Source: an uncultured bacterium
GTDB taxonomy: Bacteria; Krumholzibacteriota; Krumholzibacteriia; LZORAL124-64-63
DNA: 64,000 nucleotides
Assembly (NCBI GenBank): GCA_963732385.1
Contig: CAVSZB010000007.1
Span: forward strand, 992,001 to 1,056,000
Direction: 5' to 3'
Shown in pieces: positions 31,026 through 50,613 of the stretch. A program made the translations under genes and the position numbers. Under the pieces are notes generated by a model. That model searched no databases. It was not told where the DNA came from and saw only the letters and a list, made by a program, of their open reading frames with translations. Numbering within the stretch: position 1 is the stretch's first letter; each line of letters opens with the position of its first letter.

Positions 31026-31039
31026 CGTGGCCTCCCTTC

Positions 31040-32224
31040 CTAGAGCCTCACGCCCAGGAGATTGATCGTCTCGCCTGTCTTGCCTTTGGCCGCGTCGACC
31101 AACCGGTCGATCACACTGGCGATCTGCCGCAGATCGCAGTCGCGGCCGCCCAGGCCGTAAATCCAGTTGAGCACCGGCGGCGCGCCGGGCTGTCCATAAA
31201 GCGCCGAGCGCACTTCGCTGAACAGCGGCCCGCCGGCGGCCCCGAACGACACGGCGCGGTCGAGGACGGCCACCGCCTTGCGACCCTTCAGGGCCGCCGC
31301 GATTTCCGTGGCGGGGAACGGCCGGAACAGACGGAGCTTGAGCATCCCGACCTTCACGCCGCGTTCGCGATAGTCGTCGATGACATCCTTCGCGGTGCCG
31401 GCGGTGGAACCCATCATCACGAGCGCCACTTCGGCGTCGTCAAGCCGGTACGACTCGAAGAAATCGTAGTGCCGGCCGCTGAGCTCGCCGTACTCACGGC
31501 TGATCTGGTTCACCACGCCGAAGGCCCTCTGATGCGCCTCCATCTCGCCGATCTTGTGCTCGAAGTAGTAGTCCGGAAGATCCAGCGGACCGACCGTGAT
31601 CGGCTTCGCCACGTCGAGCAGCGCGTAGGCCGCCTTGTAAGGACCCACGAACTTCTCCGCGTCGGCGGCGTCGAGGATATGCAGAGAATCGGCGGTGTGG
31701 CTGATGATGAAACCGTCGTAGTTGATCATGACCGGCAACCGCACGTCGGCATGCTCGCCGATGCGGAACGCCATCAGCGCGTTGTCGTACGCCTCCTGCG
31801 CGCTTTCGCAGAAGAGGTGGATCCAGCCGGCGTCGCGACCGCCCATGGCGTCGCTGTGGTCGCAGTGAATGTTGATGTTGCCGGAGAGCGCGCGGTTCAC
31901 CAGCGCCATGCAGATCGGCAGGCGCAACGAGGCGGCCACGTAGACCAGCTCCCACATCAGGGCGAAGCCGGCGGAACTGGTGGCGGTGATCACGCGGGCG
32001 CCCGCCGCCGCGGCACCGATCGCCGCGGACATGGCCGAGTGCTCGCTCTCGACGAGGATCATCTCCGCGTCGCTCTCGCCGTTGGCGACGAACTCCGCGA
32101 ACTTGTGCATCATTTCGGTCTGGGGCGTAATGGGGAACACCGAGGCCACATGCGGCCGCGCCTGTTTGAAAGCGTATGCCACCGCCTCGTTGCCCGACAA
32201 CGCCACGAACTGCTGCTTGGCCAT
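31040..32224 (-). CDS. porA: Pyruvate/2-oxoacid:ferredoxin oxidoreductase alpha subunit
   Basis: GNEAVA, FPITPQT, VESEHSA, TATSS, NRAL, DGFIISH, FRPFP, YGLGGRD. Confidence 0.95.
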   Translation of the reverse strand: MAKQQFVALSGNEAVAYAFKQARPHVASVFPITPQTEMMHKFAEFVANGESDAEMILVESEHSAMSAAIGAAAAGARVITATSSAGFALMWELVYVAASLRLPICMALVNRALSGNINIHCDHSDAMGGRDAGWIHLFCESAQEAYDNALMAFRIGEHADVRLPVMINYDGFIISHTADSLHILDAADAEKFVGPYKAAYALLDVAKPITVGPLDLPDYYFEHKIGEMEAHQRAFGVVNQISREYGELSGRHYDFFESYRLDDAEVALVMMGSTAGTAKDVIDDYRERGVKVGMLKLRLFRPFPATEIAAALKGRKAVAVLDRAVSFGAAGGPLFSEVRSALYGQPGAPPVLNWIYGLGGRDCDLRQIASVIDRLVDAAKGKTGETINLLGVRL

Positions 32225-32250
32225 CCCGAACCCTTCCTTTCCCGCGACCG

Positions 32251-32559
32251 TCACTTCTCGTCGCGGATCATCACGATGGCGGCCTTGCCCTTGGCGGCGG
32301 GCGGGCAGTGCTGGGCGCAGATCCCGCACCCCTTGCAATGGTCGTAGTCGAAGCCGGTCATCTTCGTCTTCTCGCCCGAGGCGTCGATGAGGACCGCGCT
32401 GTCGGGGCAGTAGATCCAGCAGAACATGCAGTTGATGCAGTTCTCAGCGACGAATTCCGGTTTGAAAGTACGCCAGTCGCCGGTGTTGTAGGTTTGGGAA
32501 TTGCCGGCCTCGAGGATGATCCCGCCGGCCGGCAGGTCGTGCGCATTCCTGAGGCTCAT
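32251..32559 (-). CDS. porD: Pyruvate/2-oxoacid:ferredoxin oxidoreductase delta subunit (2x[4Fe-4S])
   Basis: TGDWR, CINCMFCWIYCP, CKGCGICAQHCP; ATGA overlap with the gamma gene. Confidence 0.93.
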   Translation of the reverse strand: MSLRNAHDLPAGGIILEAGNSQTYNTGDWRTFKPEFVAENCINCMFCWIYCPDSAVLIDASGEKTKMTGFDYDHCKGCGICAQHCPPAAKGKAAIVMIRDEK

Positions 32560-33137
32560 TCCGTCACCAGCTCCTTGTAGGCCCGCTCGACGGCGGTCAC
32601 GTTGCCATCGACCACCGCCTGCGAGAACTTGCTCTTGAGACGCGCTGTCAACGAGCTCTTCATGTCGTCTAGCGCCATCATCTCGGTCGCCGCCAGCAAC
32701 GCGCCGATCATCGGCATGTTGGGAATGGAACGACCTACACAGTCGAGGGCGATCTTGGTGGCGTCGATCGTGCAGACCTTGCCGTCCTTGATCTTGAGCC
32801 GCTCGCGGATCCGGGCCGGTTTCTCCACGGTGTTGACCAGGTAGACCGTTTCGGCGCGGCTGCCCGCGGTGACCCCGGCTGCCGCCGACTCGAGCAGCGT
32901 GGGGTCGAGGACGATGACGATGTCGGGACTCTCGATGCCGCAGTGCCGGCGGATCGGCTCGTCGGCGATGCGCGTGTAGCCGCGCATCGGCGCGCCGCGT
33001 CGCTCGGGCCCGTACTCGGGGAAGCCCTGGCTGAACTTGCCGCGGTCGAGGACGGCCTCCGCGAGGAATATCGCGGCGGTCTTCGCCCCCTGCCCCCCGC
33101 GGCCGTGCCAGCGGATTTCGACCATCTTGGCTGCCAT
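32556..33137 (-). CDS. porG: Pyruvate/2-oxoacid:ferredoxin oxidoreductase gamma subunit
   Basis: EIRWHGRGGQGAKT, FPEYGPERRGAP, PNMPMIGA. Confidence 0.95.
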   Translation of the reverse strand: MAAKMVEIRWHGRGGQGAKTAAIFLAEAVLDRGKFSQGFPEYGPERRGAPMRGYTRIADEPIRRHCGIESPDIVIVLDPTLLESAAAGVTAGSRAETVYLVNTVEKPARIRERLKIKDGKVCTIDATKIALDCVGRSIPNMPMIGALLAATEMMALDDMKSSLTARLKSKFSQAVVDGNVTAVERAYKELVTE

Positions 33138-33429: not shown

Positions 33430-34563
33430 ATGTCCCCTGCCCCCGACACCACCCTGCGTCTGTCGCTCCGGTTTGACGGCCGCCCTTGCAGCTATGTGCT
33501 CGGACGGGGGGTCCTCTCGCTGCTGCCGACGCTGCTGGGCGATCGACCGGCCGTCGTGCTGCTCGATCGGGGCGCCGTTGGCGACCGACGCGAACAGCTG
33601 ACCGCCAGTCTGCGCGACCGGAGCGACCGCCCGCTGCCCACGCTCACCCTCAACGGCGGCGAAGGGGTGAAGAACCTGGCGACTCTGGAACGGGTCTATA
33701 ACTGGCTGGCGCGACGCGGGCTGCCGCGGGACGGCACCCTGGTCGGCGTGGGCGGAGGCGCACTGCTCGACCTGGCCGGCTTCGCCGCAGCCACCTGGCA
33801 GCGCGGGGTTGACTTCGTGAGCGCGCCGACGACACTGCTGGCAATGGTAGACGCCTCGCTTGGCGGCAAGACCGCCCTCGACGTCGCCGGCGTGAAAAAC
33901 AACGTGGGCGCCTTCCACCCCGCGATCCATGTGCTGGCCGATCCGGGGTTCCTCGCCACGCTGCCGCGCCGCGAGTGGCGGAGCGGACTCGCCGAGACGA
34001 TCAAAGCCGCCGTGATCGCCTCACCGTCCCTCTTCGCCAACCTTGAGAGGCACGCCCCGGCTCTGCGCGCGGCGTTCGGCGAGGCGGCTTCCCGTCCCCG
34101 CAGCCGCGATCTCGCCCCCGCCGCCGCGTTGCGCCTGCCCTGGACCGTCTGGATCGGCGGCGCGGCGCGGGTGAAGGCGCGCATCGTGGGACGGGACTTC
34201 CGCGAGGAGGGTCCGCGCCGCGCGCTGAATCTGGGTCACACGCTCGGACACGCTCTCGAGGCGTCCGGCGGGCTCAGTCACGGCGAGGGGGTGGCCGCCG
34301 GCCTGGCGATGGCGGTGGCGATCGCCCACCTGCGCGGCCTCTGCCCGGCCCGCGACGCGGTGCGCATCCTCGCCCTGATCGAAGCCTGCGGCCTGCCGAT
34401 CGCGCCGCAACTCCCCCCTCTGGCCACGCTCGAGCGCCTGATCGCGGGCGACAAGAAACGTCGCCGCGGCGTCGTCGGCTGGGTCCTGCCGGAGCGGATC
34501 GGCCGGGTCCGCCTGGACCAGCCGGTCGACCTGCGGAACGTGGCGGCGGTCCCGGCGCTGTGA
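33430..34563 (+). CDS. aroB: 3-dehydroquinate synthase
   Basis: GEGVK, GGGALLDLAGF, PTTLLAMVDASLGGK, LNLGHTLGHALE, HGEGV, DKK. Confidence 0.92.
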   Translation: MSPAPDTTLRLSLRFDGRPCSYVLGRGVLSLLPTLLGDRPAVVLLDRGAVGDRREQLTASLRDRSDRPLPTLTLNGGEGVKNLATLERVYNWLARRGLPRDGTLVGVGGGALLDLAGFAAATWQRGVDFVSAPTTLLAMVDASLGGKTALDVAGVKNNVGAFHPAIHVLADPGFLATLPRREWRSGLAETIKAAVIASPSLFANLERHAPALRAAFGEAASRPRSRDLAPAAALRLPWTVWIGGAARVKARIVGRDFREEGPRRALNLGHTLGHALEASGGLSHGEGVAAGLAMAVAIAHLRGLCPARDAVRILALIEACGLPIAPQLPPLATLERLIAGDKKRRRGVVGWVLPERIGRVRLDQPVDLRNVAAVPAL

Positions 34564-34625: not shown

Positions 34626-36740
34626 TCAGTACAGACCGACCGGATCGATGTCCAGCATCACTTCCACCCCCCGCTCGCGCGCCTCGAGAGCGCGGGCGCA
34701 GGCGGCCAGCCAGCGTTTCCGCTCGGCGCCGAGCGATCCCTTCACCAGCAGTTGCCAACGGTAACGGTCCTGCAGCCGCTCGAAGACCGCGGGCGCCGGC
34801 CCGAGCAGTTCGCGCCCCTCGCCGGCCAGCCCCTCCCGCACCACTGCGGCCAAAGTCATGGCCGCCGCCTCGGCGACCGCCTGGCGACGCGCGCTGACGG
34901 CCAGTCGCAGCAGACGGCGAGCCGGGGGATAGCCGAGCACCTCGCGGGCAGCCAGTTCCGGCCCCGCGAAAGCATCGTAGTCGTGCCGCGCCGCCGCCTG
35001 GATCAGCGGGTGGTCCGGCCGGAAGGTCTGGAAGATCACCAGACCGGGCGTCAACCGACCGGTGCGACCCGCCACCTGGGTGAGGAGCTGGAACGCCCGC
35101 TCGTCGGCCCGGAAGTCCGGCAGCGTGAGGCCATCGTCGGCGGCCATCACCCCCACCACCGCCACCCCGGGGAAGTGATGCCCCTTGGCCACCATCTGCG
35201 TGCCGACGAGCAGTTGCGCCTCGCCGGCAGCGAACGCGCCGAGGATGCGGGCATGGCTGCCGCGACGACGGGTCGTGTCCTGATCGAGGCGCAGCAGCCG
35301 CGCGGCGGGAAACGCCGCCGCCAGGGCGATCTCCAGCTTTTCGGTGCCGCCGCCGGCGGGCAGGAACTCCCGTCCGCCACAGTGCGGGCAGACCGGCGGG
35401 GCCGCCTGCGCGTAGCCGCAGTAGTGGCAGAGCAGCCGGCGGGGCCGCAGGTGCCAGGTGAGGCCGATGTCGCAGCGCGGACAGTTCTCCGCGACCCCGC
35501 AGGACGCGCACTGGAGCGCCCGCGCGAAACCGCGCCGGTTGTAGTAGAGGATCGCCTGCCGGCCGGCGCCCAGGGCCTCGTCGAGCGCGGCCAGCAGTCG
35601 TGGCGAAAAGCCGTCGGGCGCCGGTTCCCCGCGCATGTCCACGAGCTCGACCCGCGGCAGCTCCCCCACCGGACGGTCGGCGAGCGTGAACATCCGGTAG
35701 CGTCCTGACCGCCCGTTGGCCCAGCTCTCGAGGTCCGGCGTGGCGGAGCCGAGGATCACCACCGCCCCCGCGGCGCGCGCGCGCACCAGGGCGGCATGCC
35801 GGGCGTGATAGCGCGGCTTCTCCTCCTGCCGGTACGAACTCTCGTGCTCTTCGTCGACGACGATGACGCCGAGATCGCGCACCGGCGCGAACAGGGCGGA
35901 GCGCGGTCCGACGACGAGACGAATCTCGCCGGCCGCCGCCGCCTCGTGCACGCGGCAGCGCTCCCCCGCCGGCAGCGCACTGTGGATGGCGGCGACCACG
36001 GGCCCGAAACGGCCCGTGATGCGCGCGATCGTCTGCGGTGTGAGGGCGATTTCCGGCAGCAGGAAGATGGCGCTGCGCCCGCGTGCGAGCGCTTCGCCGA
36101 TCACCCTCAGGTAGACCTCGGTCTTGCCGCTCCCGGTCACCCCATGCAGCAGCAGGACGCCGCCGCCTCCCTCGCGGAGCTGGGTGAACGCCGCATCCGC
36201 GGCCGCCTGCTGCGCCGGGGTCAGCGCCACATTTTCGCTGTCGTGCAGCGGGAAGTCGACCGCCGCGGTGCGCGTGGCTCGGGCGCGTGTGCCGGGCGTC
36301 GGGGGATGGAAAAGCGGCACCACTTCGCCCAGCGGCAGGGCGTAGTACTCCGCCAGCCACCTCGCCAGTTGCCACCGATCTGGCGCCAGGGCGTAGGCGG
36401 GGGGCAGCAGCCGCCCGACGGGACGCACGGAGTGACCGTCGACCATCGGCGCCGGGTCGTGCGACGGGCTGACACCGGTCACCAGCCCGATGACCTCGCG
36501 TCGGCGCCCGAACGGCACCCCCACCAGGTCGCCAGGCGCGGGAGGGCGTGACGCCGCCCCCTCCTTGGCGGCATCCATTTCCCAGCGGTAGGTGAAGAAC
36601 TGGTCCAGCGGCACGGGCAGGGCGACCTCCACCAGGAGTCCTCCCCCACCCGGCCGCGATCCGTCGGAGCGCGGCACGTGGCCCCGCCTTTCCGCGCCGG
36701 CGTGGCGCGCGCGGGGATGGTAACCCCGCGGCTCCGGCAC
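34626..36740 (-). CDS. priA: Primosomal protein N' (replication restart helicase)
   Basis: HGVTGSGKT, PEIALT, DEEH, GSATP, four CxxC pairs, GTQMVAKG, PDFRA; start uncertain. Confidence 0.95.
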   Translation of the reverse strand: MPEPRGYHPRARHAGAERRGHVPRSDGSRPGGGGLLVEVALPVPLDQFFTYRWEMDAAKEGAASRPPAPGDLVGVPFGRRREVIGLVTGVSPSHDPAPMVDGHSVRPVGRLLPPAYALAPDRWQLARWLAEYYALPLGEVVPLFHPPTPGTRARATRTAAVDFPLHDSENVALTPAQQAAADAAFTQLREGGGGVLLLHGVTGSGKTEVYLRVIGEALARGRSAIFLLPEIALTPQTIARITGRFGPVVAAIHSALPAGERCRVHEAAAAGEIRLVVGPRSALFAPVRDLGVIVVDEEHESSYRQEEKPRYHARHAALVRARAAGAVVILGSATPDLESWANGRSGRYRMFTLADRPVGELPRVELVDMRGEPAPDGFSPRLLAALDEALGAGRQAILYYNRRGFARALQCASCGVAENCPRCDIGLTWHLRPRRLLCHYCGYAQAAPPVCPHCGGREFLPAGGGTEKLEIALAAAFPAARLLRLDQDTTRRRGSHARILGAFAAGEAQLLVGTQMVAKGHHFPGVAVVGVMAADDGLTLPDFRADERAFQLLTQVAGRTGRLTPGLVIFQTFRPDHPLIQAAARHDYDAFAGPELAAREVLGYPPARRLLRLAVSARRQAVAEAAAMTLAAVVREGLAGEGRELLGPAPAVFERLQDRYRWQLLVKGSLGAERKRWLAACARALEARERGVEVMLDIDPVGLY

Positions 36741-36806: not shown

Positions 36807-37181
36807 TCAGCCGTGCCGCACGCCGAGCAGTCCGTTGACTTTCTCCAGGAACCGCTGGGGACTGAACGGCTTGGTGATGTAGCCGTCGGCGCCCGCCTCC
36901 CGACCCTTGTCACGATCCTCGCGCCGGTCGCGGGCGGTCAGCAGGAGGACCGGAATGTCCGCCGTTTCCCGGCTAGCCTTGAGCAGGGCGCAGACCTCGA
37001 ATCCGTCGCGCCGCGGCATCATCACGTCGAGCACGATAAGGTCGGGCAGCTCGCTGGCGGACAGCGCCAGGGCCTGCTCGCCGTCCGCGGCCTGAATGAC
37101 CTGATAGCCCTCGGCGGTGAGACTGAAGTCGAGGATGTTCAGGATGGCGGACTCGTCGTCACAGATCAGGATCTTGCGCAA
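36807..37181 (-). CDS. Single-domain response regulator
   Basis: ICDDE, VLDVMMP, LLTA, KPF; GGAGG before TTG start. Confidence 0.92.
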   Translation of the reverse strand: MRKILICDDESAILNILDFSLTAEGYQVIQAADGEQALALSASELPDLIVLDVMMPRRDGFEVCALLKASRETADIPVLLLTARDRREDRDKGREAGADGYITKPFSPQRFLEKVNGLLGVRHG

Positions 37182-37235
37182 GTTTCAACCTCCCGCGGGC
37201 GGCATCGCTCCAGCCGGACTGCTGCACACCCGGTT

Positions 37236-37262
37236 GTATCGGCCTCAGACGATTCCGCTTGA
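37236..37262 (-). promoter_or_regulatory. Putative sigma28 (FliA)-like promoter TCAAG-N14-GCCGATAC
   Basis: Close match to FliA-type -35/-10 elements, 55 nt upstream of the receiver gene; overlaps the upstream stop. Confidence 0.55.
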
Positions 37263-40200
37263 GACAGGCTCCGCGTCCCTGAGTTCCTGCGGCACCGGCA
37301 TTCCGCGGCGCTGGCCCTGGAACCGCTCGATCCGGCAGGCTCTCAGCCCCGCCTCCTCGATGAACGGCTCCACCAGGCGCGGGCAGAACTGCGAACCGAC
37401 GAGCGCGCCGATCTCCGCCGTCGCCGCGGCGAACGTCAGCGGAGAACGATAGGTGCGGCCCTGCAACATCGCGTTGAGCGCATCGGTCAGGCCGACCAGA
37501 CGCGCGCCGATGGGGATCGCCTCGCCCTCCAGCCCGTCCGGATAACCCTGCCCGTCGAAGCGTTCGTGATGATGCAGAATGACCTGCCGCACCTTGGAAG
37601 AGGGCTCCAGCGGCGCCAGGATCTCGAGGCCCAGGTGTACGTGCTGGCGGATCAGTTCGCGTTCGTGGACCGAGAGCGGCGCCGCCTTGCGCAGCATCGG
37701 CTCGCTGAGCCGCGCCAGGCCCAGGTCGTAGGTCTTGAGCGCGAAGGCCAGGTTCTCGAGCTCCTCCTGAGGCAGCTTCAGCCGGCGCGCCGTCGCCAGA
37801 CAGATCTCGTGGCAGATGTCCGTCAGCGCATCGTGCCGTTCACGGCGGACCGCGACGGCCGTGCGCATCGCGTCACGCAACGCCACGAATTCGCGGGTCC
37901 GCTCCAGCCAGGCCCCCCGCCGCAGCAGCAGGTGACCGATGCGCGGCGCCATCGCCTCGAGGAGGGCCAGATCGTCGGCGGTGAAATGTCGCCCGTCGAG
38001 ACGGTTGTTCACGTTGACGACTCCCACGCAATCGAGTCCGTCGAACAGCGGCACGCTCAGCAGCGAGGCGGTAACGTACTGCGGGTCGCTGGCGCGCTTG
38101 CCGAAGCGGCCGTCGCCGACGATGTCGTCCACCAGCAGACTGCGCCCGCTTGCCCACACCTTGCCCGCCACGCCCTCCCCGCGCCGCAGACGGCAGCCCT
38201 GCACGACGCTGTCGGACAGGCCGACCGCCGCCTCGATCAGCAGATGCTCGCCCGACTCCTCGGGGACCATCAGCGACACGTTGCGAACGCCCATCGTTTC
38301 GCCGATCCAGTGCACCAGCTTTTCGGTGAAGTCCAGGGGATCGGTGAACGCGGGCAGGGAGCCCTGCGGACGTCCCCGGTGCACGACCTCGCCGGCGCGC
38401 GGGAGCACGATCTGCAGCCGCGCGCCGCTCGGCTGTCGCTTCTCGGCCCAGATGCGCCCCTCGTGCCACTGCACAATGTCGCGACAGATGGTCAGTCCTA
38501 CCCCCTGACCGCCATGCTCGCGGGTCGACGAACCATCCACCTGGTAGAAACGGTCGAAGATCAGTTCGAGCTGGCCGTCGGGAATGCCGATGCCGGTGTC
38601 TTCCACGACGATCTTGACCGCGGTCAGGCCGTCGTAGAGCGCCAGGCGGACCGTGCCGCCCTCCGGCGTGAACTTGACGGCGTTGCTGAGCAGATGCTCG
38701 ATCACCTGAGCCATCTGCGCCGCGTCGACGCTCAACCGCACGTCGTCCGCCGGCAGATCGAGCTGCAGGTTGATCGCCTTGGCGGCGATCGGGGCGGCGG
38801 CCGCCTCCGCCTGCCGTTTTACGACCTCCATCAGGCTGCATTCCTCGCGATGAACGCGCATGGTGCCGTCCTCGATCCGCGATAGATCGAGGATATCGTC
38901 CATGATGGCCGTAAGCTGCTCGCACTCCTGGTGGATGACCGTGAGGAACTCGTTGCGCACGGAATCGTCCATCGCCTGCTGATTGTGCACCAGCGTCTCG
39001 GTGTAGGCCCTGATGGAGGTCAGCGGCGTGCGCAGTTCGTGGCTGACGTTGGCCACGAAATTGCTCTTGAGTTCGTTCAGGTTCTTCAGCTGCTCCGAAG
39101 CGCGCGACAGCTCCAGGTTGTTGCGCGCCAGCTGATCATACAGTTCCGCCGATTCGATCGCGGTGCTGGCATGGCTGCCGAAAACCTCCAGCTGATGAAT
39201 GATCTCCACGGAGGGCAACCGGCGATCCACGGGATCGTCCACGCTCAGGTAACCGCGCACCTCTCCATCCGTCGACAGCAGCGGCACGATCAGCATGTCG
39301 TCCTCGTGCCATTCGTCGGCGGCGCGCTCGCCCAGATTCATGGTAAAGCCGTCCGCGGTGACCGCGGCCCACTCTTCGTCCTGGTGGCTTACGAAGTAGC
39401 TCGCCGAAACCCGGAATCTCGGCTGGGTCATCCGCCGGTACTCGTCCATCGCGATCTGCAGACCGATCAGGTGCGCCTTGCCCTCCTCCGTGATGCCGGC
39501 GAACGCGCGGGCCTCGAAGACCTGGGTGGAGGGGGACCAGATGCGCAGCAGCACCATCCGGAAACCGAGCGATTCGCGCACCGCTTCCGCCACCTGCTGC
39601 AGGACCGGGTTCAGGGAGCGGGTGGCATTGATGCGCGCAGTCAGCTGCAGGATGCGCTCGAGCGTCTGGGCGCGCCGCCCGAGCTGCTTTACCTGGGCCC
39701 GCTGCCCCTCCAGCAGACGCGCGCCCTCCTCGCCCGCGCGCCGCGCCTCATCGAGTTGCGCCACGGCCAGCGCGTATTCCGAGGCCAGCGTCACGGAACT
39801 GTCCCGCAGGGTCTGCAGGCTCTCCTGCCGCTCTCGCGCCAGCAGACCCGCGCCGGAACACAGCGCCGCGCCGAAAATCGCCGCGTGCGCCACGGCCGCC
39901 GGCCACCCGGCCGCGAAACCGAACCGGGCCGAAGCCCCCGTCAGGGCCGCCAGCAGGACCGCGGTCAGGGCGGTCGCGGCCCACACGCACCAGACCCGCC
40001 GGGACACCGCGCCGGCGCGCCACAGACGGCGTCCCCCCTCGACCAGGGCCGCCACGATCGCCAGTTCGACCAGGGCCAGCGGGATCGGCAGGGCGGCGCC
40101 GTCCGCCACGCCGGTCACCACCCCCGTCAGCCGCGCCGCAGAGAACACGGCCTGCGCCTGACCGGCCAGTTCGACGCCGCGGTACGTGCGCATCCCGGTC

Positions 40201-40337
40201 CGCAGGCGCGCCAGGCGGAAGACCTGCGCCAGCCCGAGGCCCAAAAACAACAACAGCGTCTGGTGGACGTCGAACACGCCGACCTCCACCAGAGGCCGGG
40301 TCAGCGGCTGCAGCAGCCATAAGGTGGCCGTCGGCAT
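37245..40337 (-). CDS. Membrane GAF-histidine kinase fused to C-terminal GAF and degenerate HD-GYP domain
   Basis: TM helices; VSHELRTPL, HLLSNAVKFT, DTGIGI, GQGVGL; second GAF (VGVVNVNNR...FTADD); YDLG in place of HD; HHERFDGQGYPDGL. Confidence 0.88.
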   Translation of the reverse strand: MPTATLWLLQPLTRPLVEVGVFDVHQTLLLFLGLGLAQVFRLARLRTGMRTYRGVELAGQAQAVFSAARLTGVVTGVADGAALPIPLALVELAIVAALVEGGRRLWRAGAVSRRVWCVWAATALTAVLLAALTGASARFGFAAGWPAAVAHAAIFGAALCSGAGLLARERQESLQTLRDSSVTLASEYALAVAQLDEARRAGEEGARLLEGQRAQVKQLGRRAQTLERILQLTARINATRSLNPVLQQVAEAVRESLGFRMVLLRIWSPSTQVFEARAFAGITEEGKAHLIGLQIAMDEYRRMTQPRFRVSASYFVSHQDEEWAAVTADGFTMNLGERAADEWHEDDMLIVPLLSTDGEVRGYLSVDDPVDRRLPSVEIIHQLEVFGSHASTAIESAELYDQLARNNLELSRASEQLKNLNELKSNFVANVSHELRTPLTSIRAYTETLVHNQQAMDDSVRNEFLTVIHQECEQLTAIMDDILDLSRIEDGTMRVHREECSLMEVVKRQAEAAAAPIAAKAINLQLDLPADDVRLSVDAAQMAQVIEHLLSNAVKFTPEGGTVRLALYDGLTAVKIVVEDTGIGIPDGQLELIFDRFYQVDGSSTREHGGQGVGLTICRDIVQWHEGRIWAEKRQPSGARLQIVLPRAGEVVHRGRPQGSLPAFTDPLDFTEKLVHWIGETMGVRNVSLMVPEESGEHLLIEAAVGLSDSVVQGCRLRRGEGVAGKVWASGRSLLVDDIVGDGRFGKRASDPQYVTASLLSVPLFDGLDCVGVVNVNNRLDGRHFTADDLALLEAMAPRIGHLLLRRGAWLERTREFVALRDAMRTAVAVRRERHDALTDICHEICLATARRLKLPQEELENLAFALKTYDLGLARLSEPMLRKAAPLSVHERELIRQHVHLGLEILAPLEPSSKVRQVILHHHERFDGQGYPDGLEGEAIPIGARLVGLTDALNAMLQGRTYRSPLTFAAATAEIGALVGSQFCPRLVEPFIEEAGLRACRIERFQGQRRGMPVPQELRDAEPVSSGIV

Positions 40338-40356
40338 CGATCCCCCTCGCGCCGGG

Positions 40357-40746
40357 TCAGACCGCCGGGCGCGCCCGCGCCACGAGCAGTCTCTGGATCA
40401 GGTCCACCAGCCGCGAAATCGTGAACGGCTTGCGCATGAAGTGGTTCGCTCCCGCCTGCAGGATGGTGTCGCGCGTCTGCGGATCAGCGCGCGCCGACAA
40501 CGCGACAATGATCGTGTCGGCGTAGGCGCGGTTGCGCCGGATGAGACGGGTGGTGTCCACTCCGTCAAGCTTCGGCATCATGATATCCATGACGATCACG
40601 TCGGGCCGGAACGTCGACACCTTGTTCATGCAATCGACACCGTCCCGCGCCGTCGCGACCTGGAAGCGCTCGTTGTTCAGGGCGTGGCTGAGCACGTTCA
40701 CGAGCGGCAGTTCGTCGTCAACGATCAGGACCCTTGGGGCTGCCAT
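40357..40746 (-). CDS. Single-domain response regulator
   Basis: IVDDE, VMDIMMP, ALSA, KPF; start overlaps the upstream gene end. Confidence 0.92.
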   Translation of the reverse strand: MAAPRVLIVDDELPLVNVLSHALNNERFQVATARDGVDCMNKVSTFRPDVIVMDIMMPKLDGVDTTRLIRRNRAYADTIIVALSARADPQTRDTILQAGANHFMRKPFTISRLVDLIQRLLVARARPAV

Positions 40747-43697
40747 CTACCCTCCTGTTCGTGATCGGCGGGCACTGTCGCGGCCGCCGGCGATCCGGCC
40801 GGAGACGCCCCGAACAGGCCCTCCTCGCGCAGGACGGCCACGAAGACCTCCACGACCTCGGCGTCGAACTGCCGACCCGCGTTGCCCCGCAACTCCCCCA
40901 CGGCGTGCTCCGCGGAGCGGCTCTCATGCCACGGCCGTTCCTGGCTCATGGCGAAGAAGGCATCGACCACGGCCAGAATGCGCGCGCCGAGCGGGATATC
41001 GCTGCCGAGCAGGCCACGCGGGTAGCCGCTCCCGTCCACCCGCTCGTGATGGGCCATGATGATCTGACTCATCTCGGGCGCCTGGAGCAGCGGCGACACG
41101 AGATTGGCACCCTGCTCCGGGTGCTGAGTGACCTCGTCGTGCTCGTCCTCGGTGAGTGGCCCCGTCTTGTGCAGGATCTCGTCGTCCACCGCGACCATGC
41201 CGACGTCGTGCACCGAGGCTACGTACTGCAGCCGCCGGATCTCGGCGCGCGTCAGCCCGAGCCGACGCGCGGTCTCGACGAGCAGCCGACGCGCCAGCGG
41301 GGTGGCCGTGGGGATGGCGTTGCGCTTCATGACGATCAGCGCCTGCAGGGCATCGACGATCTTCTCGACCCGCCGCGCCGAGGAGTCGGCCTGCATCGCC
41401 TGCTCCAGCGCGGCCGACACCTTGTCGCTCAGGGTCGTCACCAGGGCCAGGTCGTCTTCATTGAAGGGAGCGCCCGACACCTTGTTATTGACGTTGATCA
41501 CGCCGATCGCCTTGTCGCCGATGCGCAGAGGCACCGACACCAGGGAGTGCGTTTCGTACTGATCGCGGTTCCCCGACTCGATCAGGCCGTCTTTCACGAC
41601 GTCCGCCACCAGCAGTGGCCGGCCCGACTGCAGCACGCGCCCGGCGATCCCCTTGCCGATCGCCACATGCGCGCTCTTGACGATGCTCTCGTTCAGCCCG
41701 TAGGCCGACTGCACCACGAGATTCCGTCCGTCCTTGTCGAGCAGCATGAGCGACACGATCTTCGATTCGGTCATCTCTGCGACCATGCGCACGGTCAGAC
41801 GCAGCAGCTGCTGGAACTGTGGTCGCGTCGTGAGATCGCCGAGGATGGCGGCGGTGACCGGATTGAGCTGGTGCTCCTTGGGCAGGTGGAAGATGAAAGA
41901 AGACCCTTGCCCCACCGTGCTCTGCACGTCGATGTGCCCGCCGTGCAGGTCGATGATGTTCTTGACGATCGACAGTCCGAGACCCGCCCCCTCGACCCCC
42001 TCGCTCAGGCCGCTGACGCGGTAGAACTGCCGAAATATGCGGCGCAATTCGTCGGCGGGGATGCCGGGGCCGGTGTCGCTGACCGTCACGCGGATGGTGG
42101 CGGCGTCCTCGCTGGCGCTCACCGTGACGGTGCCCCCGCCCGGCGTGTACTTGATCGCGTTGTTGAGCAGGTTGATGAGGACCTGTCGGATGAGATCGGC
42201 GTCGATCTCCACGCGGGGCAGCAGGGCCGGCACATCCAGCGTCAGGCGCAACCCCTTGGCGTCGAGGAGCGGATCGAGCGTGCGCAACGTTTCGCGGATC
42301 AGCGGCTCCAGATCGAGCACGCAACGGTTCAGGAAACGCTGCCCGAATTCGAGGCGCGAAAAGTCGAGGATGCGATTCACCATCCGCAGCAGGCGCTCGG
42401 ACTCCTCGCGGATGATGCCGAGGAATTCTCCGGTCTGCGCGAAGTCCGGCCGTGCGCGTTCGCTGAGCAACGCCTCTGTGTAGGCGCTGATCGAGGTGAG
42501 CGGCGTCTTGAGTTCGTGGCTGGCCACCGCCACGAAATCGCTCTGCATCTTGTTGATGCGCGTGAGCGTCTCGTTCTCGGCGTGCAGGGAGGCCAATTCG
42601 CCCCGCAGGCGGGCCAGATGCCCGCTCGCCGCAAGCAGCGGCGCCAGCTGGCTGCCCAGGCGGACCATGGTCATCTTCAGATAAGCCTCGTCGGCCTCGT
42701 GCGACCGCAGCCCCACGAGCACGGCCAGACCGGCGGCGCCGCGTCCGACGAGCGGGGCGAGCAGCCAGCGATCGAACACAGACCCGGCGGCCGGAGGGAA
42801 GTCGGCGTCGCGCAGCGCCGCGGCAGGACCGGCAGAGAAGGGGCGATCCAAATCGCGTGCGGCGGTCCCGAAGAAGGCGGCGCTACGGGCCGTCAGATCG
42901 ATCCACTGCGGCCAGGTCTGTCCGCCCCTTACGGCGATGCAGCGCGCCGGAGTCCCGCGCTCGTCATCCACATCCGCCGGCCAGCCCGGACTGGTGATCG
43001 CGGCCGCGAACGCCACGCCCGGCACCCGGGTGAGCACGAGCACCGTTTCCTCGAGCAGATCCGCGAAGTCGCCGTCCTCGCCCAGGGCAATGCCGGCGTT
43101 GTCGGCGGTGCGCCTGGCAAGGCTGTCCACCGGCTCCGGGGTCGCCACCCACCCCGGCAGCAGCACGCGCCTGGCCGTCCGGACGAGATGCGTGACCGAC
43201 AGGAGCAGGGCGCCCAGCATCAGGGTAACCCCCAGCACCAGCCGCCAGTCGAATTCGCTCGCAGGGTCGCCACCCGGCCAGGAGACGCTCGCCATCGCCG
43301 CGAATCCGCCGAGCAGCCCCAGCGTGGCGCCGAGACTCGACCTCGCCGAGGCACAGAGCAGGCCGGCGTGACAGGCTGGGAAGAGCAGCAGGAAGAGGTA
43401 GGGGCTGGAAACCCCGCCGGTGAGCACGAGCAACGGCAGCCAGATCGCCGCGTCGGCGAGCAGGATCGGCAGCGCCGCCAGCGGCCGTCCGCCGGAGCGG
43501 AAACCGCCGGAGAACAGCGCGAGCAGTGCCTGCAGGACGGCCGCGACGGCGAACAGCACGAGGACGGGGGGCAGCGGGAAGCGGAGCGCGGCCAGTTCAC
43601 GCGAGACGAGGACGACCAGGAGGCCGACCGTCAACTCCGCCCAGCGGACCTGTCGCAGCAGGTAATGGTTGATATCGGCCACGCGATCCAAGAGCAA
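40725..43697 (-). CDS. Membrane histidine kinase fused to C-terminal GAF and HD-GYP domain
   Basis: Several TM helices; ASHELKTPL, NLLNNAIKYT, DTGPGI, GAGLGL; GAF with NNK...FNEDD; VHDVG, HP, HHERVDGSGYPRGL, IPLGARILAVVD. Confidence 0.9.
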   Translation of the reverse strand: MLLDRVADINHYLLRQVRWAELTVGLLVVLVSRELAALRFPLPPVLVLFAVAAVLQALLALFSGGFRSGGRPLAALPILLADAAIWLPLLVLTGGVSSPYLFLLLFPACHAGLLCASARSSLGATLGLLGGFAAMASVSWPGGDPASEFDWRLVLGVTLMLGALLLSVTHLVRTARRVLLPGWVATPEPVDSLARRTADNAGIALGEDGDFADLLEETVLVLTRVPGVAFAAAITSPGWPADVDDERGTPARCIAVRGGQTWPQWIDLTARSAAFFGTAARDLDRPFSAGPAAALRDADFPPAAGSVFDRWLLAPLVGRGAAGLAVLVGLRSHEADEAYLKMTMVRLGSQLAPLLAASGHLARLRGELASLHAENETLTRINKMQSDFVAVASHELKTPLTSISAYTEALLSERARPDFAQTGEFLGIIREESERLLRMVNRILDFSRLEFGQRFLNRCVLDLEPLIRETLRTLDPLLDAKGLRLTLDVPALLPRVEIDADLIRQVLINLLNNAIKYTPGGGTVTVSASEDAATIRVTVSDTGPGIPADELRRIFRQFYRVSGLSEGVEGAGLGLSIVKNIIDLHGGHIDVQSTVGQGSSFIFHLPKEHQLNPVTAAILGDLTTRPQFQQLLRLTVRMVAEMTESKIVSLMLLDKDGRNLVVQSAYGLNESIVKSAHVAIGKGIAGRVLQSGRPLLVADVVKDGLIESGNRDQYETHSLVSVPLRIGDKAIGVINVNNKVSGAPFNEDDLALVTTLSDKVSAALEQAMQADSSARRVEKIVDALQALIVMKRNAIPTATPLARRLLVETARRLGLTRAEIRRLQYVASVHDVGMVAVDDEILHKTGPLTEDEHDEVTQHPEQGANLVSPLLQAPEMSQIIMAHHERVDGSGYPRGLLGSDIPLGARILAVVDAFFAMSQERPWHESRSAEHAVGELRGNAGRQFDAEVVEVFVAVLREEGLFGASPAGSPAAATVPADHEQEGRWQPQGS

Positions 43698-43735
43698 CTC
43701 CGTTGCCGCCGTTCGGGGAACCCTGCTGCGCCCGG

Positions 43736-44722
43736 TCAGCGCGCCGTGTCCACAACGCCGGCAACGGTGGTGACGACGGGCGCCTCGTTCGGCGCGCGCC
43801 GCTCGCGGACGATCACGCTGCCGTTGATGGTCTTGCCGTAGCTCTTGAGCTCGGCGGCGATATCGCTCAGACGCGCGATGTGCTGGGCCTGTCCTGTGGC
43901 GTCGGTCACGAGCGCAATGGTCAGGGTGACGAACGGCATCATCTTCTCGAGGCCGGCGCGGCTGCGCACCTGGATGTAGCCCCGCTCGCGGTCGACCGGG
44001 TCATATAGGGCCGTTACGCCCTCGTCGAACCGCCGGATGATCTGTGCGGCGAGCGTGTCGGCATGCTCGGGGGCGGAGATGACCACGAAGTCGTCGCCGC
44101 CGATGTGTCCGGTGAAGACCGATTGATCAACCGATTCGCGCCCGACATCGAGCAGCATCCGGGCCAGGAAACTGATCGCCTCGTCGCCCCGCGTATAACC
44201 GTAGTAGTCGTTGAAGCCCTTGAAATTATCGATGTCCAGATACAGGAAGCTGAACGGCTGCCCCTCCTGTGAACGCCGCTGCACCTCCTGATCGATCGCC
44301 CGGTTCCCCGGCAGGCCGGTCAGCGGATTGGCGTCGCGCTGCGACTGGCTCCAGTCCAGCATGTTGCGCATGCGCAGCATCAGTTCTTCGTGGTTGAACG
44401 GCTTGGTCAGGTAGTCGTTCGCGCCCCCGCGCAGACCGCGCACCTTCTCGGAGCCCTCGCCCTTGGCGGTGAGCATGATGACCGGGATCCAGCTCGTGCG
44501 GAAGGCCTCGCGCAGTTTTTGCAGCAGCGTGAAGCCGTCCATCTTCGGCATCATCACGTCGAGCAGGATCAGGTCGGGCACGCTGCGTTCGATGAACTCG
44601 AGGGCGACCAAGCCGTTCTCCGCGAGCGTGACCTCGAAGCCCTCCTGCTCCAGCAGGAACTGGAGGATCTTCCGGATATGCGGCTCATCATCGACGACGA
44701 GAATTCTGCGGGCCGCGGACAT
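43736..44722 (-). CDS. Response regulator with GGDEF (diguanylate cyclase-like) output domain
   Basis: REC (VVDDE, LLDVMMP, KPF) plus NPLTGLPGN, DIDNFKGFNDYYG...GD, GHIGGDDF. Start moved to ATG 44722. Confidence 0.92.
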   Translation of the reverse strand: MSAARRILVVDDEPHIRKILQFLLEQEGFEVTLAENGLVALEFIERSVPDLILLDVMMPKMDGFTLLQKLREAFRTSWIPVIMLTAKGEGSEKVRGLRGGANDYLTKPFNHEELMLRMRNMLDWSQSQRDANPLTGLPGNRAIDQEVQRRSQEGQPFSFLYLDIDNFKGFNDYYGYTRGDEAISFLARMLLDVGRESVDQSVFTGHIGGDDFVVISAPEHADTLAAQIIRRFDEGVTALYDPVDRERGYIQVRSRAGLEKMMPFVTLTIALVTDATGQAQHIARLSDIAAELKSYGKTINGSVIVRERRAPNEAPVVTTVAGVVDTAR

Positions 44723-44789
44723 ATGCCCCCCTGACGGGCGTGCAATCTGAAGGCACGCCGCCACGATTTGGGATTTGGGGGCATTTTTG

Positions 44790-44804
44790 GCAATTCGCAT
44801 GCCA
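44790..44804 (-). promoter_or_regulatory. Putative sigma54 -24/-12 promoter TGGCATGCGAATTGC
   Basis: Fits TGGCAYG-N4-TTGC with exact GG-N10-GC spacing; intergenic and correctly oriented, about 70 nt upstream of REC-GGDEF. Confidence 0.7.
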
Positions 44805-44878: not shown

Positions 44879-45898
44879 TCAGCGCCAGGAAGCCACGGGA
44901 CCACGAGCGAAACTGTCCAGATTCCAGCCATCGACGTGCCCGGCGACCAGCCGGCACCACCCCGCGTAGGCGATCATGGCGGCATTATCGGTGCAGTATG
45001 CCGGATCCGGGGGCAGGAAATGCAGTCCCTCGCGAGCGGCGGCTGCGGCCACCGCGCCCCGCAGCCGACGATTGGCCGCCACCCCGCCGGCGAGATAGAC
45101 TGCCCGCGTCCGCCGCTCGCGCGCCGCCTGGATCAGACGCGCAACGAGAACCTCGACGATGGCCTCCTGGGTCTCGAGCGCCAGATCGGCCACATCCTGC
45201 GGCAAATGCGGCCGGGGCAGCTTTTCCACCTCCAGGCGCGCCGCGGTCTTGAGGCCGCTGAAGCTGAAGACGATCCGCGGGTCGCGCAGCAGCGGCCGGG
45301 GGAACCGGAAATGTCCCGGCCGCCCCCCCTCCGCCGCCCGATCGATGGCCGGACCACCCGGATAGGGGAGGCCGAGCAGTTGGGCCACCTTGTCGAACGC
45401 CTCGCCCGCCGCGTCGTCGAGCGTCGCGCCGAGGCGCTCGTAACGCCCCACCTCCGACATCAGCACGACCTCGGTGTGACCACCTGAAACCACCAGCACC
45501 GCGGCCGGGAACTGCAGCGGGGCCGTGAGCGCATTGGCCAGGATGTGTCCTTCGATGTGGTGCACCCCGGCCAGCTTCAGGCCGGCCGTGTAGGCCAGCG
45601 CCTTGGCCGTGGAGAGACCGACCAGCAGCGCGCCGATCAAACCAGGGCCGGCGGTCACCGCCACGCCGTCGAGGTCCTTCAGCCCGAGCCTCTGGCCCGA
45701 CAGCAGATGCTCGACCATCGGCAGCAGATTGACCAGATGGGCGCGTGACGCGAGTTCCGGCACGACCCCGCCGAAAGGTCCGTGCAGCCTCACCTGAGAG
45801 GAGACGAGGTTCGCCGTCACGCCACGACCCTCTTCGTAGAGCGCCACGCTCGTGTCGTCACAACTGGTTTCGATACCGAGCACGCGCACGGCGTTCAC
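44879..45898 (-). CDS. tsaD: tRNA N6-threonylcarbamoyladenosine synthase subunit
   Basis: LGIETSCDDT, GGVVPELASRAH, HHIEGH, VSGGHT, DDAAGEAFDK, DNAAMI. Confidence 0.97.
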   Translation of the reverse strand: MNAVRVLGIETSCDDTSVALYEEGRGVTANLVSSQVRLHGPFGGVVPELASRAHLVNLLPMVEHLLSGQRLGLKDLDGVAVTAGPGLIGALLVGLSTAKALAYTAGLKLAGVHHIEGHILANALTAPLQFPAAVLVVSGGHTEVVLMSEVGRYERLGATLDDAAGEAFDKVAQLLGLPYPGGPAIDRAAEGGRPGHFRFPRPLLRDPRIVFSFSGLKTAARLEVEKLPRPHLPQDVADLALETQEAIVEVLVARLIQAARERRTRAVYLAGGVAANRRLRGAVAAAAAREGLHFLPPDPAYCTDNAAMIAYAGWCRLVAGHVDGWNLDSFARGPVASWR

Positions 45899-49284: not shown

Positions 49285-50613
49285 TCAGGTTTTCTGGGGT
49301 TTTTTGCGGGCGGCCGGAAAGAGAACATTGTTCAGGATCAGCCGGTAGCCGGGCGAGGTGGGGTAGAGGTCAAGATCGGTGGGCGGATCCCCCACCGCGT
49401 GCTGGTAGTCCTCGGGATCGTGCCCGCCGAGAAACGTGAACGTGCCCTGGCCATGCTTGCCGTGGAGGTAGCGCACCTCGTCAGTCCCCTCCACCTGCGC
49501 CAGCACGATCACCGGGCGCTTGAGAAACCGCCTGTGGAAGCCGGTGGTCTGGCCCATGAAACCGTTCAGCACGTTGACATGGTCCTGGGTCAGCATCGCC
49601 GGCACCGGGTCGATCTTCGCGGAAAAGCCGAAGAGGGTGAAATCGTCGCCTTCCGGACCGCGCAACTGCGCCTCCTCGGTGGTGTCGATCGTCGAGTACT
49701 CGTAGACCAGCGGGTTGACGACGAGACTCCAGCCCTGGAACGCGAAGGCGCGACCATCTTCCCGTTTCGCTTCGCGGGCCCCGTCGAGCCCGTCCCCGTC
49801 ATATTCGACCGGCACGATGTCCACGACCAGATAGCTGAGCGCGATGTCGATCGTATCGGTGGCGGAACACATGGCGAACAGGAAGCCACCCGCCGACACG
49901 TAGTCCGAGATGCGCAACGCCACCGCCTGCTTGAGCTGCCAGACCTTCGCAAACCCTAGTTCGCGCGCCAGATTCTCATTGAAGTCCTTCTGCTCGAGAT
50001 ACCACGGTTCGAGCTGCAGGGAGTAGAACTTGCCCGACTGCCCGGTAAAATCCTCGTGGTGCAGGTGGATCCAGTCGAACTCGCGCAGCCCCCCCGCCAG
50101 CACCTCGCGGTCGTAGATCTTCGTGTAGGGGATGTCCGCATAGTCGAGCGCGAGCATCACGGCATCGTCCCACGGCTGCGCGTAGGGCGGCGTGTAGACC
50201 GCGATGCGCGGCGCGGCCTCCAGCAACACCTCTTCCATGTTCTCCCGCGCGACGGTCGCACGTACGACCGCCACATCCGCTTCGGACAACAGATCGAACC
50301 GCACGCCCATCACCCGCGCCTCGACCCGCGCACGCTCCGTCGCGCGCAGCAGGAAACTGCCGCCGCGGTAGTTCAGCAGCCAGCTGACCGGTTCATCCGC
50401 CTGCAGCGCGTGGTAGGCATACCCGTAGGCACGCAGGTGATTCGTCTGGCCCAGGTCCATCGGCACGAGCAGCCAGTCGGCGGCGCCGGCCGGGGCGGCG
50501 ACACAGACGCAGACGAGCGCGAGCAGCCAGCCGGGCAGGCGTGTCGTCGCGCCGGGCGGCCCCCACGGCCGCGGACGCCCGCCGACGCCGGAGAAGACGC
50601 AATGGCGTTTCAT
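49285..50613 (-). CDS. Conserved exported protein with class I glutamine-amidotransferase-like domain (family often labelled 'asparagine synthetase B')
   Basis: Signal peptide; PMD..QTNHLRAYG, WLLNYRGGSF, PWDDAV, HLHHEDFTGQ, FAMCSATD, GGHDPEDY, GYRLILNNVLFPAA. Lacks AsnB features such as the N-terminal Cys. Confidence 0.8.
   Translation of the reverse strand: MKRHCVFSGVGGRPRPWGPPGATTRLPGWLLALVCVCVAAPAGAADWLLVPMDLGQTNHLRAYGYAYHALQADEPVSWLLNYRGGSFLLRATERARVEARVMGVRFDLLSEADVAVVRATVARENMEEVLLEAAPRIAVYTPPYAQPWDDAVMLALDYADIPYTKIYDREVLAGGLREFDWIHLHHEDFTGQSGKFYSLQLEPWYLEQKDFNENLARELGFAKVWQLKQAVALRISDYVSAGGFLFAMCSATDTIDIALSYLVVDIVPVEYDGDGLDGAREAKREDGRAFAFQGWSLVVNPLVYEYSTIDTTEEAQLRGPEGDDFTLFGFSAKIDPVPAMLTQDHVNVLNGFMGQTTGFHRRFLKRPVIVLAQVEGTDEVRYLHGKHGQGTFTFLGGHDPEDYQHAVGDPPTDLDLYPTSPGYRLILNNVLFPAARKKPQKT

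Follow-up and report, generated by a model that had tools for sequence, protein, structure and literature searches.

Layout and conservation of the cassette

The analysed window, a stretch of 64,000 nucleotides from an uncultured bacterium of the Krumholzibacteriota, contains five closely spaced genes on the minus strand, the order and domains of which, as read from open reading frames and Pfam, agree with the original prediction. In 5' to 3' order, they code for a response regulator of 328 aa with a REC and a GGDEF domain (REC-GGDDF, a predicted diguanylate cyclase, 43736..44722, phospho-acceptor D55), a histidine kinase of 990 aa (HK1, 40725..43697), a stand-alone receiver of 129 aa (REC1, 40357..40746, D54), a second histidine kinase of 1030 aa (HK2, 37245..40337) and a second stand-alone receiver of 124 aa (REC2, 36807..37181, D52). 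The four junctions in this order are a gap of 38 nt, a 22-nt overlap and gaps of 19 nt and 63 nt, and GC3 is 0.87-0.88 across the genes. Two kept neighbours flank the cassette on the same strand: tsaD upstream (44879..45898), which is outside the circuit proposed below, and priA downstream (34626..36740), which is probably outside it too.

The sigma54-type motif predicted ahead of the cassette is present and conserved in the orthologous loci. The -24/-12 site (GG-N10-GC), TGGCATGCGAATTGC, is located at 44804-44790 on the minus strand, about 70 nt 5' of the REC-GGDDF start. Motifs scoring at least 9/11 were found in 40 of 48 orthologous upstream regions, as compared to 1 of the 48 reverse complements and 44 of 960 windows chosen at random, and rpoN was found in the same genome. 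Among the 52 genome hits of the motif matrix, a pilin-like gene ranked 3 and a flagellin gene ranked 19. Contigs from RNA runs gave a flat, even cover of the cassette and its flanks, and these contigs may be DNA. A sigma70 and terminator scan was uninformative, and a search for c-di-GMP-I riboswitches gave no match, with the control search likewise empty.

A kinase-GAF-HD-GYP protein was identified in 185 of the 208 genomes of the phylum. Close relatives are labelled Ca. Krumholzibacteriia, and further relatives carry Eisenbacteria and Nitrospirota labels. The cassette is co-conserved in related genomes in the order tsaD-[cassette]-priA, with priA following REC2 in 33 of 34 mapped loci. A recent island or an assembly artefact was rejected, since the GC content is even and synteny at the locus extends across families. 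REC-GGDDF, REC2 and priA make up its invariant core. The circuit had been predicted to be self-contained, which overstates the case: of 34 mapped genomes, 6 lack HK1 and 6 lack REC1, in some families the core is accompanied by a kinase without a tail or by none, and the five genes, coding for a predicted cyclase, two kinases and two receivers, include no output gene. Family f5 has REC-GGDDF and REC2 but not these kinases, and other kinases can therefore act on both proteins. A pairing of HK1 with REC1 and of HK2 with REC2 was unsupported, REC1 being present in 6 genomes without HK1 and absent from 6 with HK1. A flagellum-specific role was weakened by 7 mapped genomes with cassette kinases that gave no flagellin match.

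A DNA-pattern scan of GTDB genomes recovered at least two loci of the kinase-GAF-HD-GYP family and at least 78 other kinase loci, and among the matches listed none of these 78 had an HD domain in the kinase open reading frame. The Nitrospira-labelled query P0185 gave 0/12 and 0/73 genomes in two groups reached via loci with Nitrospirae or Nitrospirales in their titles, a search that, run without a positive control, is uninformative.

Kinases, receivers and cyclase

Both kinases combine an N-terminal membrane part with a HisKA-HATPase core and a C-terminal GAF-HD-GYP tail, and the fusion predicted to occur twice was thus recovered by Pfam in both proteins. In HK1, the matches are HisKA 385-451, HATPase_c 499-608, GAF 628-765 and HD_5 786-948 (E 1.7e-34); in HK2, they are two GAF stretches, one ahead of the core and one behind it, HisKA 424-491, HATPase_c 538-647 and HD_5 824-984 (E 9e-29). 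The two proteins are 35% identical over 588 aa. A crude hydropathy scan gave four N-terminal hydrophobic segments plus one within the GAF-like region in HK1, and three segments in HK2. A further, cryptic GAF domain probably precedes HisKA in HK1, a lead suggested by the ESM Atlas, in which the look-alikes of this region are GAF proteins at 0.97.

The kinases were predicted to be intact, and all catalytic boxes are indeed kept. The H-box histidine (H394 in HK1, H433 in HK2) with its E-x-x-T motif and the N, G1 and G2 boxes are invariant in 99/99 HK1 sequences and range from 52/54 (two gaps) to 54/54 in the HK2 set. Both proteins have the sequence features of HisKA-type histidine kinases, the best PDB match is HK853 (E 1.8e-45), and the predicted model matches HK853 as well. 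Among the matches listed, no NCBIfam family scored above its cut-off. We found no paper on the kinase-GAF-HD-GYP architecture in the literature searched, in line with the earlier view that it had not been characterised.

REC1 and REC2 are single REC domains, and the best PDB matches of REC2 include PleD. The conserved receiver Asp, Thr(Ser) and Lys were identified, and the phospho-accepting Asp is kept in all three receivers. The first gene had been described as REC-GGDEF, which holds for its domains; the active-site motif itself is GGDDF, in 42 of 44 sequences, the other two having GGDDY and GGDEF, and thus departs from the signature [G/A/S]G[D/E]E[F/Y]. The DxDxFK..N..GD residues of the window cyclase are intact, and D163, K168, N171 and D180, the roles of which we take to be those in PleD, are near-invariant among orthologues. 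A His replaces the usual Arg two residues before GG. The RxxD I-site is absent from the window cyclase and from the orthologues aligned, including those without tailed kinases. Since these relatives share it, the absence is not evidence that the tails compensate for a lost I-site, and that explanation was rejected. The specificity position, in a register that we assume from PleD and GacA, is Asp and not the Hypr Ser in all 44 sequences aligned, and the product is therefore predicted to be c-di-GMP. Among proteins with the same motif, GSU1937 is described as active (PMC8835794) and the GGDDF domain of PA3258 as inactive. GSU1937-type cyclases (PMC8835794) resemble REC-GGDDF in the motif and in a chain without EAL or HD-GYP, but they are membrane-bound and carry the Hypr Ser, whereas REC-GGDDF is REC-controlled and has Asp, so that its predicted product is c-di-GMP rather than cGAMP.

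Residues kept and lost in the HD-GYP tails

We counted tail residues in 99 HK1 and 54 HK2 sequences, both sets being non-redundant, with PmGH numbering mapped by alignment. The tails belong to the HD-GYP family by their Pfam match (HD_5), the kept HHExxDGxGYP motif and PDB matches that are all HD-GYP proteins. They resemble the whole GAF-HD-GYP module of PmGH from Persephonella marina (PDB 4MCW; PMC4159591), to which the predicted model aligned over 341 columns spanning GAF and HD-GYP (Foldseek E 5e-15). An HD-only tree placed the kinase tails in one clade with weak support (UFboot 57; 82 with RDxGM proteins).

The G-site metal ligands of active phosphodiesterases are present in both kinases: D222, H250 and H277 in 99/99 HK1 and 54/54 HK2, and H276 and D305 in 99/99 and 53/54. 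Y285 is kept in 97/99 and 54/54, R314 in 94/99 and 46/54 (Gly in 8/54 HK2) and K235 in 83/99 and 43/54. The K317 position is basic in 97/99 and 44/54, mostly Arg, with Gln in 10/54 HK2. The nucleotide contacts of DvhD (GYP Tyr, KPG Lys, RxY[K/R]) are therefore found in the tails, with the Pro and Gly of the KPG loop poorly kept (Pro in 7/99 HK1). The structures of DvhD, PDB 9RBZ and 9RC0, match the tail by sequence. DvhD, a dCache-PAS-HD-GYP protein of Desulfovibrio vulgaris, is reported not to hydrolyse c-di-GMP but to bind it with a Kd of 99 nM through Y/K/R contacts, upon which its stalk helices splay (PMC13090378). The tails resemble DvhD in lost catalytic residues, kept Y/K/R contacts and stalk helices to a sensory domain; DvhD is metal-free (HD>SQ, HH>MN), with a periplasmic protease under its control (PMC13090378), whereas the tails keep the G-site ligands and follow an intact histidine kinase. 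With D222, H250, H276 and H277 retained, the tails are not DvhD orthologues and may work alike. The full metal site, unlike in DvhD, could serve catalysis or another ligand.

Active PmGH-type phosphodiesterases have the H-site ligands E185, H189 and H221 together with K225 and D308, a set that is incomplete in the tails. The K225 position is Met in 99/99 HK1 and Leu, Met, Ile or Val in 54/54 HK2, and HDxGK occurs in 0/196 kinase-first fusions (HDVGM in HK1 and YDLGL in HK2 of the window), as compared to 5 of 6 other HD-GYP domains of the same genome. No His was found in the H189 register (0/99 HK1, 0/54 HK2), with a His up to 3 residues away in 21/54 HK2. D308 is kept in 21/99 HK1, and the five most frequent residues at its position in HK2 do not include Asp. 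H221 is kept in 99/99 HK1 and is Tyr in 52/54 HK2 (HD>YD), and E185 is also lost relative to PmGH. In HK1 of the window, the positions of H189, K225 and D308 are A798, M834 and F915, and the tail keeps 6 of the 8 PmGH metal ligands. The PmGH mutants H189A, H221A, K225A and D308A are described as abolished or crippled in hydrolysis, and the c-di-GMP complex of PmGH holds an uncleaved nucleotide with G-site iron only (PMC4159591). RpfG is described as lacking E185 and H189 (PMC4159591), and Lysobacter RpfG as active despite missing ligands (PMC8463545). Pseudo-enzyme status need not mean ligand binding: HD-GYP proteins of the RpfG and HnoD types act by protein contact.

By these residues, the tails are not standard phosphodiesterases, and the source names that call some related proteins c-di-GMP phosphodiesterases are probably wrong. 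The tails had been predicted to degrade or sense the cyclic dinucleotide. Degradation is unsupported, because residues whose loss kills PmGH activity are missing (K225, H189 and D308, and H221 in HK2), and active phosphodiesterase tails are disfavoured; sensing fits better, the loss of catalytic residues with retention of the G-site and c-di-GMP contacts making it likelier than degradation.

A candidate c-di-GMP feedback circuit

We suggest, with a probability of about one half, that HK1 and HK2 are c-di-GMP-sensing kinases that feed back on the REC-GGDDF cyclase and the two single receivers. Sigma54 would drive transcription of the five genes together, and HK1 and HK2, as kinase/phosphatases, would target REC-GGDDF, REC1 and REC2. 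Phosphorylated REC-GGDDF would make c-di-GMP, which would bind uncleaved to the tail with its single G-site metal and move the GAF-stalk dimer as in DvhD. Binding may tip the balance of kinase and phosphatase activity, in the simplest case towards the latter (negative feedback, of which the sign is a guess), or may relocalise the kinase as in SgmT. REC1 and REC2 would pass the output to targets beyond the cassette, likely functions in surface attachment, pili or the cell cycle and not in flagella alone.

It is unlikely, but consistent with several findings, that the tails are instead pseudo-enzyme docking or dimerisation modules that bind either the other kinase or REC-GGDDF and keep the cyclase inactive until it is phosphorylated, with nucleotide sensing unneeded. 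The cyclase and tailed kinases are adjacent in almost every mapped locus, the tail is retained where kinase boxes decay in some Nitrospirota-labelled relatives, and HnoD works by inhibiting a partner. Lysobacter RpfG is reported to bind and inhibit unphosphorylated WspR (REC-GGDEF) independently of phosphodiesterase activity (PMC9758175) and to bind the hybrid kinases HtsH1-3 (PMC8463545). However, docking leaves the near-invariant pocket residues D222, H250, H276, H277, D305, Y285 and R314 unexplained, and families f2 and f5 have the same REC-GGDDF but no tail.

We consider it rather improbable that the HK1 tail, and possibly that of HK2, is a binuclear phosphodiesterase of a slow or non-canonical kind in a bifunctional kinase-phosphodiesterase, as the original prediction had it. 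A search of the genome recovered no EAL domain, and c-di-GMP degradation therefore rests on HD-GYP domains; HK1 keeps H221, D222, H250, H276, H277 and D305 in 99/99 sequences, and RpfG is reported to be capable of activity with two ligands missing. RpfG-type enzymes reportedly keep the HDxGK lysine. This lysine is gone from 196/196 fusions and K225A kills PmGH activity (PMC4159591), H221 is also lost in HK2, and the five HDxGK-type HD-GYP domains of the genome could degrade c-di-GMP instead. The metal pocket that the tails retain could also serve to sense another ligand (pGpG, 3'3'-cGAMP, a further nucleotide, or the metal and its redox state), a reading of low probability. The full G-site, reportedly dispensed with in DvhD, is kept, and Gln or Asn at position 317, where HK2 has some Gln, shifts HD-GYP specificity towards cGAMP, which DvhD is reported to bind (PMC13090378) and which the best-studied GGDDF enzyme is reported to produce (PMC8835794). 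But the cyclase specificity Asp predicts c-di-GMP, and R314 with a basic residue at 317 fits guanine recognition.

The proposed c-di-GMP-sensing circuit resembles in layout, with no orthology implied, the PleC/DivJ-PleD-DivK system of Caulobacter, which has two kinases, one REC-cyclase and single-domain receivers. SgmT of Myxococcus xanthus likewise has an N-terminal GAF domain, a kinase core and a C-terminal c-di-GMP enzyme domain reused as receptor (PMC3509222). SgmT is described as an orphan hybrid kinase with a GGDEF receptor and a DNA-binding regulator (PMC3509222), whereas HK1 and HK2 are paralogues that have no internal REC and share a locus with the predicted cyclase and both single receivers, and GAF-HD-GYP is the predicted receptor. 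The kinase/phosphatase balance of CckA, ShkA and RavS is also controlled by c-di-GMP, but binding occurs at the CA domain or a pseudo-receiver, and none is described there with an HD-GYP tail (PMC9600515).

Since every part is a known domain type, this would be a new wiring and not a new kind of system. Kinase control through a pseudo-HD-GYP tail would be a route absent from the literature searched, and would stand beside the GGDEF, pseudo-receiver and ATP-binding domains of known c-di-GMP-controlled kinases. A pseudo-HD-GYP that keeps metal would be intermediate between true phosphodiesterases (PmGH) and receptors without metal (DvhD). Each of the five proteins has expressible soluble parts, so the circuit is testable in vitro despite uncultured hosts. 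It is possible, if doubtful, that the cassette is a switch of lifestyle or cell cycle that is ancient and phylum-defining in the uncultured Krumholzibacteriota and Eisenbacteria. Its two kinases, working in opposition, would then sense c-di-GMP directly via a single-metal pseudo-HD-GYP, a new receptor class, and the PleC/DivJ-PleD-DivK-like loop so formed would have an origin separate from that of Caulobacter. The presence of kinase-GAF-HD-GYP proteins in 185 of the 208 phylum genomes points to a core behaviour of a little-known lineage.

Organization and conservation of the cassette

The five minus-strand genes of the original prediction were confirmed in position by ORF calls, with intergenic gaps of 38, -22, 19 and 63 nt in gene order, and Pfam confirmed the domain order REC-GGDEF, HK1, REC1, HK2, REC2, with tsaD adjoining upstream and priA downstream. 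The kinases HK1 (990 aa, HisKA-HATPase-GAF-HD) and HK2 (1030 aa, GAF-HisKA-HATPase-GAF-HD) are paralogues with 35% identity across 588 residues. An AlphaFold model of the kinase-GAF-HD part of HK1 (pLDDT 81.9, pTM 0.76) resembles HK853-type kinases and also, across 341 columns, the whole of PmGH, the GAF-HD-GYP phosphodiesterase of Persephonella marina. Since the N-terminal 372 residues of HK1 look like TM-GAF proteins (ESM Atlas), both kinases probably follow one common plan. The transmembrane part is variable: in several orthologues the N terminus is short, and a crude scan gives 0-1 hydrophobic segments. Upstream of the cassette, a 442-aa protein (window 49285-50613, minus strand) without a match in Pfam or NCBIfam adjoins a TPR protein (50610-52649) and is 60-98% conserved in many relatives. 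Elsewhere in the window, genes that resemble a pyruvate:ferredoxin oxidoreductase set, as judged from their translations (30072-33137, minus strand), face aroB (33430-34563, plus strand).

Close relatives with a name among the 120 listed of 506 matches are Ca. Krumholzibacteriia or Krumholzibacteriota, with one labelled Latescibacterota. Of the phylum's 208 genomes, 185 match the HK2 kinase-GAF-HD region (E <= 1e-70), nearly completely in seven of nine families and in none of the genomes of families f2 (0/7) and f5 (0/12). Loci were mapped for 34 of 41 genomes, including that of the window. Of these 34, 18 retain all five genes in order on a single contig (two of them frameshifted). The cassette is broken at contig ends in four, HK1 is absent in six, and REC1 is absent in six, where an extra small soluble kinase is present; REC2 is followed by priA in 33. 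In f5, REC-GGDDF, REC2 and priA are all that two genomes carry, and a third holds one tailed kinase of divergent sequence; in two genomes of f2 both receivers occur with a kinase that has no tail. These variants identify REC-GGDDF and REC2 as the fixed core of the locus and the tailed kinases as its usual partners.

In the families without REC1, the small soluble HisKA-HATPase gene (L033:4946-5794, L035-L038, L162-L166) is inserted after REC-GGDDF and before HK1. Its H-box is divergent, and L037 has Asn in place of the His. Many frameshifts in L022 (genome G002, 62% complete) and L048 (G024, 68% complete) affect the cassette and housekeeping neighbours alike, and probably reflect faulty assembly and not decaying genes.

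Intact kinase cores and degenerate HD-GYP tails

In non-redundant sets (85% cut-off) of 99 HK1 from 157 and 54 HK2 from 63, the H-box His, E-x-x-T, N, G1 and G2 residues are (nearly) invariant, in line with the predicted intact kinases. Intact HisKA boxes predict kinase and phosphatase activity, and both activities are therefore predicted for HK1 and HK2. All three receivers retain the acidic pocket, phospho-Asp, Thr/Ser and Lys. Among 44 cyclase sequences, the motif is GGDDF in 42; DxDxFK, N and D are kept and the RxxD site is absent, residues whose roles we take to be those in PleD. For GGDDF, activity is reported in Geobacter GSU1937 and an apparent lack of it in PA3258 (PMC8835794). With Asp at the Hypr-diagnostic position, the predicted product is c-di-GMP. 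The genome has matches to eight HD-GYP-like, two PilZ, two MshEN and only three GGDEF domains, and none to EAL; its c-di-GMP network is small yet complete.

In an alignment with PmGH, the G-site ligands D222, H250, H276 and H277, together with D305, are retained in both tails; of the residues that contact the nucleotide, Y285, K235 and R314 are present, and position 317 is basic. Both lack the H189 ligand and K225, D308 is mostly lost, and the HK2 tail additionally has Tyr for H221; E185 has no counterpart in the window's own HK1 and HK2. HDxGK occurs in none of the 196 kinase-first fusions fetched and in five of the six other HD-GYP domains of the genome. PmGH is described as losing most or all of its activity without H189, H221, K225 or D308, and its crystal with intact c-di-GMP as containing G-site iron only (PMC4159591). 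By these residues, the tails fall outside the active HD-GYP phosphodiesterases. The suggestion that they degrade or sense a cyclic dinucleotide is thus not supported in its first half, given the missing H189, K225 and mostly D308, and its second half is the better fit, as a prediction from the retained pocket.

Outside the window, a degenerate HD-GYP gene (RDxGM) and a canonical one (HDxGK) lie in tandem at G000:C7:1376473-1380527, with similar pairs in L057-L059. Proteins of the RDxGM type are also present in three genomes of family f2, and they cluster with the tails of the kinases (UFboot 82); the tandem may pair an enzyme with a pseudo-enzyme and represent the lineage from which the tails arose.

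Promoter and relatives beyond the phylum

Of 48 loci, 40 have a GG-N10-GC site (score >= 9/11) in the 400 nt that precede the cyclase gene, mostly 90-130 nt ahead of the receiver's first strand, compared with 1/48 reverse complements and 44/960 random windows, which supports the predicted sigma54-type motif. The genome encodes rpoN. A matrix from the cassette promoter sites gave 52 matches genome-wide. The cassette itself ranks second, in part by construction; rank 3 falls to a type IV pilin-like gene and rank 19 to a flagellin gene, as identified from N termini and, for flagellin, confirmed by position. Strong sigma54-type sites precede a type IV pilin-like and a flagellin gene at G000 C7:259324 (+) and C7:479260 (+), and a phosphotransacetylase-like gene, assigned by N terminus, at C7:1090811 (+).

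A profile search against 1.84 billion representatives returned kinase and HD domain together in 59 of the 150 matches listed, the others being mostly long multi-domain kinases. Of 20 clusters looked up, two bear the label Ca. Eisenbacteria, two are assigned to Nitrospirae/Nitrospira, and the remainder have no taxon. The same layout, whole or partial, was found in metagenome loci 44-48% identical to Eisenbacteria-labelled P0207 and in two more divergent ones; for the loci with this layout (L168-L173, L175, L178), the phylum is assigned by similarity to P0207. In a tree of 37 sequences rooted with P0240, position-1 kinases of both phyla group together (UFboot 89), as do position-2 kinases (UFboot 73), and the duplication thus probably predates the split of the two phyla, with modest support. 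The GAF- or REC-led relatives P0185, P0198, P0235, P0240 (REC-HisKA-HATPase-GAF-HD-GYP) and P0145, two of them in Nitrospirae/Nitrospira clusters, share the degenerate tail (xDxG[L/M]), and some have decayed kinase boxes; P0235 and Nitrospira-labelled P0185 have degraded ATP-binding boxes and a retained tail.

A putative c-di-GMP feedback circuit

Catalytic residues are lost while the pocket is kept across two or more phyla, which suggests that the tails may be c-di-GMP sensors in a kinase feedback circuit (probability about 0.5). DvhD offers a precedent, being described as a dead HD-GYP and high-affinity receptor in which binding moves stalk helices (PMC13090378). HD-GYP domains can reportedly act purely via contact with cyclases or kinases, and a role as docking modules is conceivable though unlikely. 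Non-canonical phosphodiesterase activity is less probable still; HK1 retains six of the eight ligands, the same number as RpfG, which is described as active in its Lysobacter form, and the residues lost are those on which PmGH depends. Sensing of another ligand seems just as doubtful as hydrolysis.

In the c-di-GMP sensor circuit, sigma54 would drive expression, the kinases would phosphorylate REC-GGDDF and the single receivers, and c-di-GMP bound to the tails would shift the kinase/phosphatase balance or location, with receivers acting on targets outside the cassette. Flagellin had no match in seven mapped genomes that carry the kinases; the output is thus probably not solely flagellar.

Full-text literature searches, covering few subscription papers, returned no titles or abstracts on a HisKA-HATPase-GAF-HD-GYP protein, in agreement with the original prediction of an uncharacterised architecture, or on c-di-GMP in Krumholzibacteriota. 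"HisKA" and "HATPase" are absent from the main text of the HD-GYP survey by Galperin and Chou (10.1101/2021.11.05.467447), whose Table 3 and supplements could list such fusions, and the portions consulted of PMC1183210, PMC9756655 and PMC6205966 contain none. Among four kinases that bind c-di-GMP (SgmT, CckA, ShkA and RavS), none is described as binding via HD-GYP (PMC9600515). The domain fusion was not encountered in the literature searched and is assembled from known parts, and the signalling locus is real, old and strongly conserved. Its kinases most likely work like SgmT (PMC3509222), with a DvhD-like sensor.
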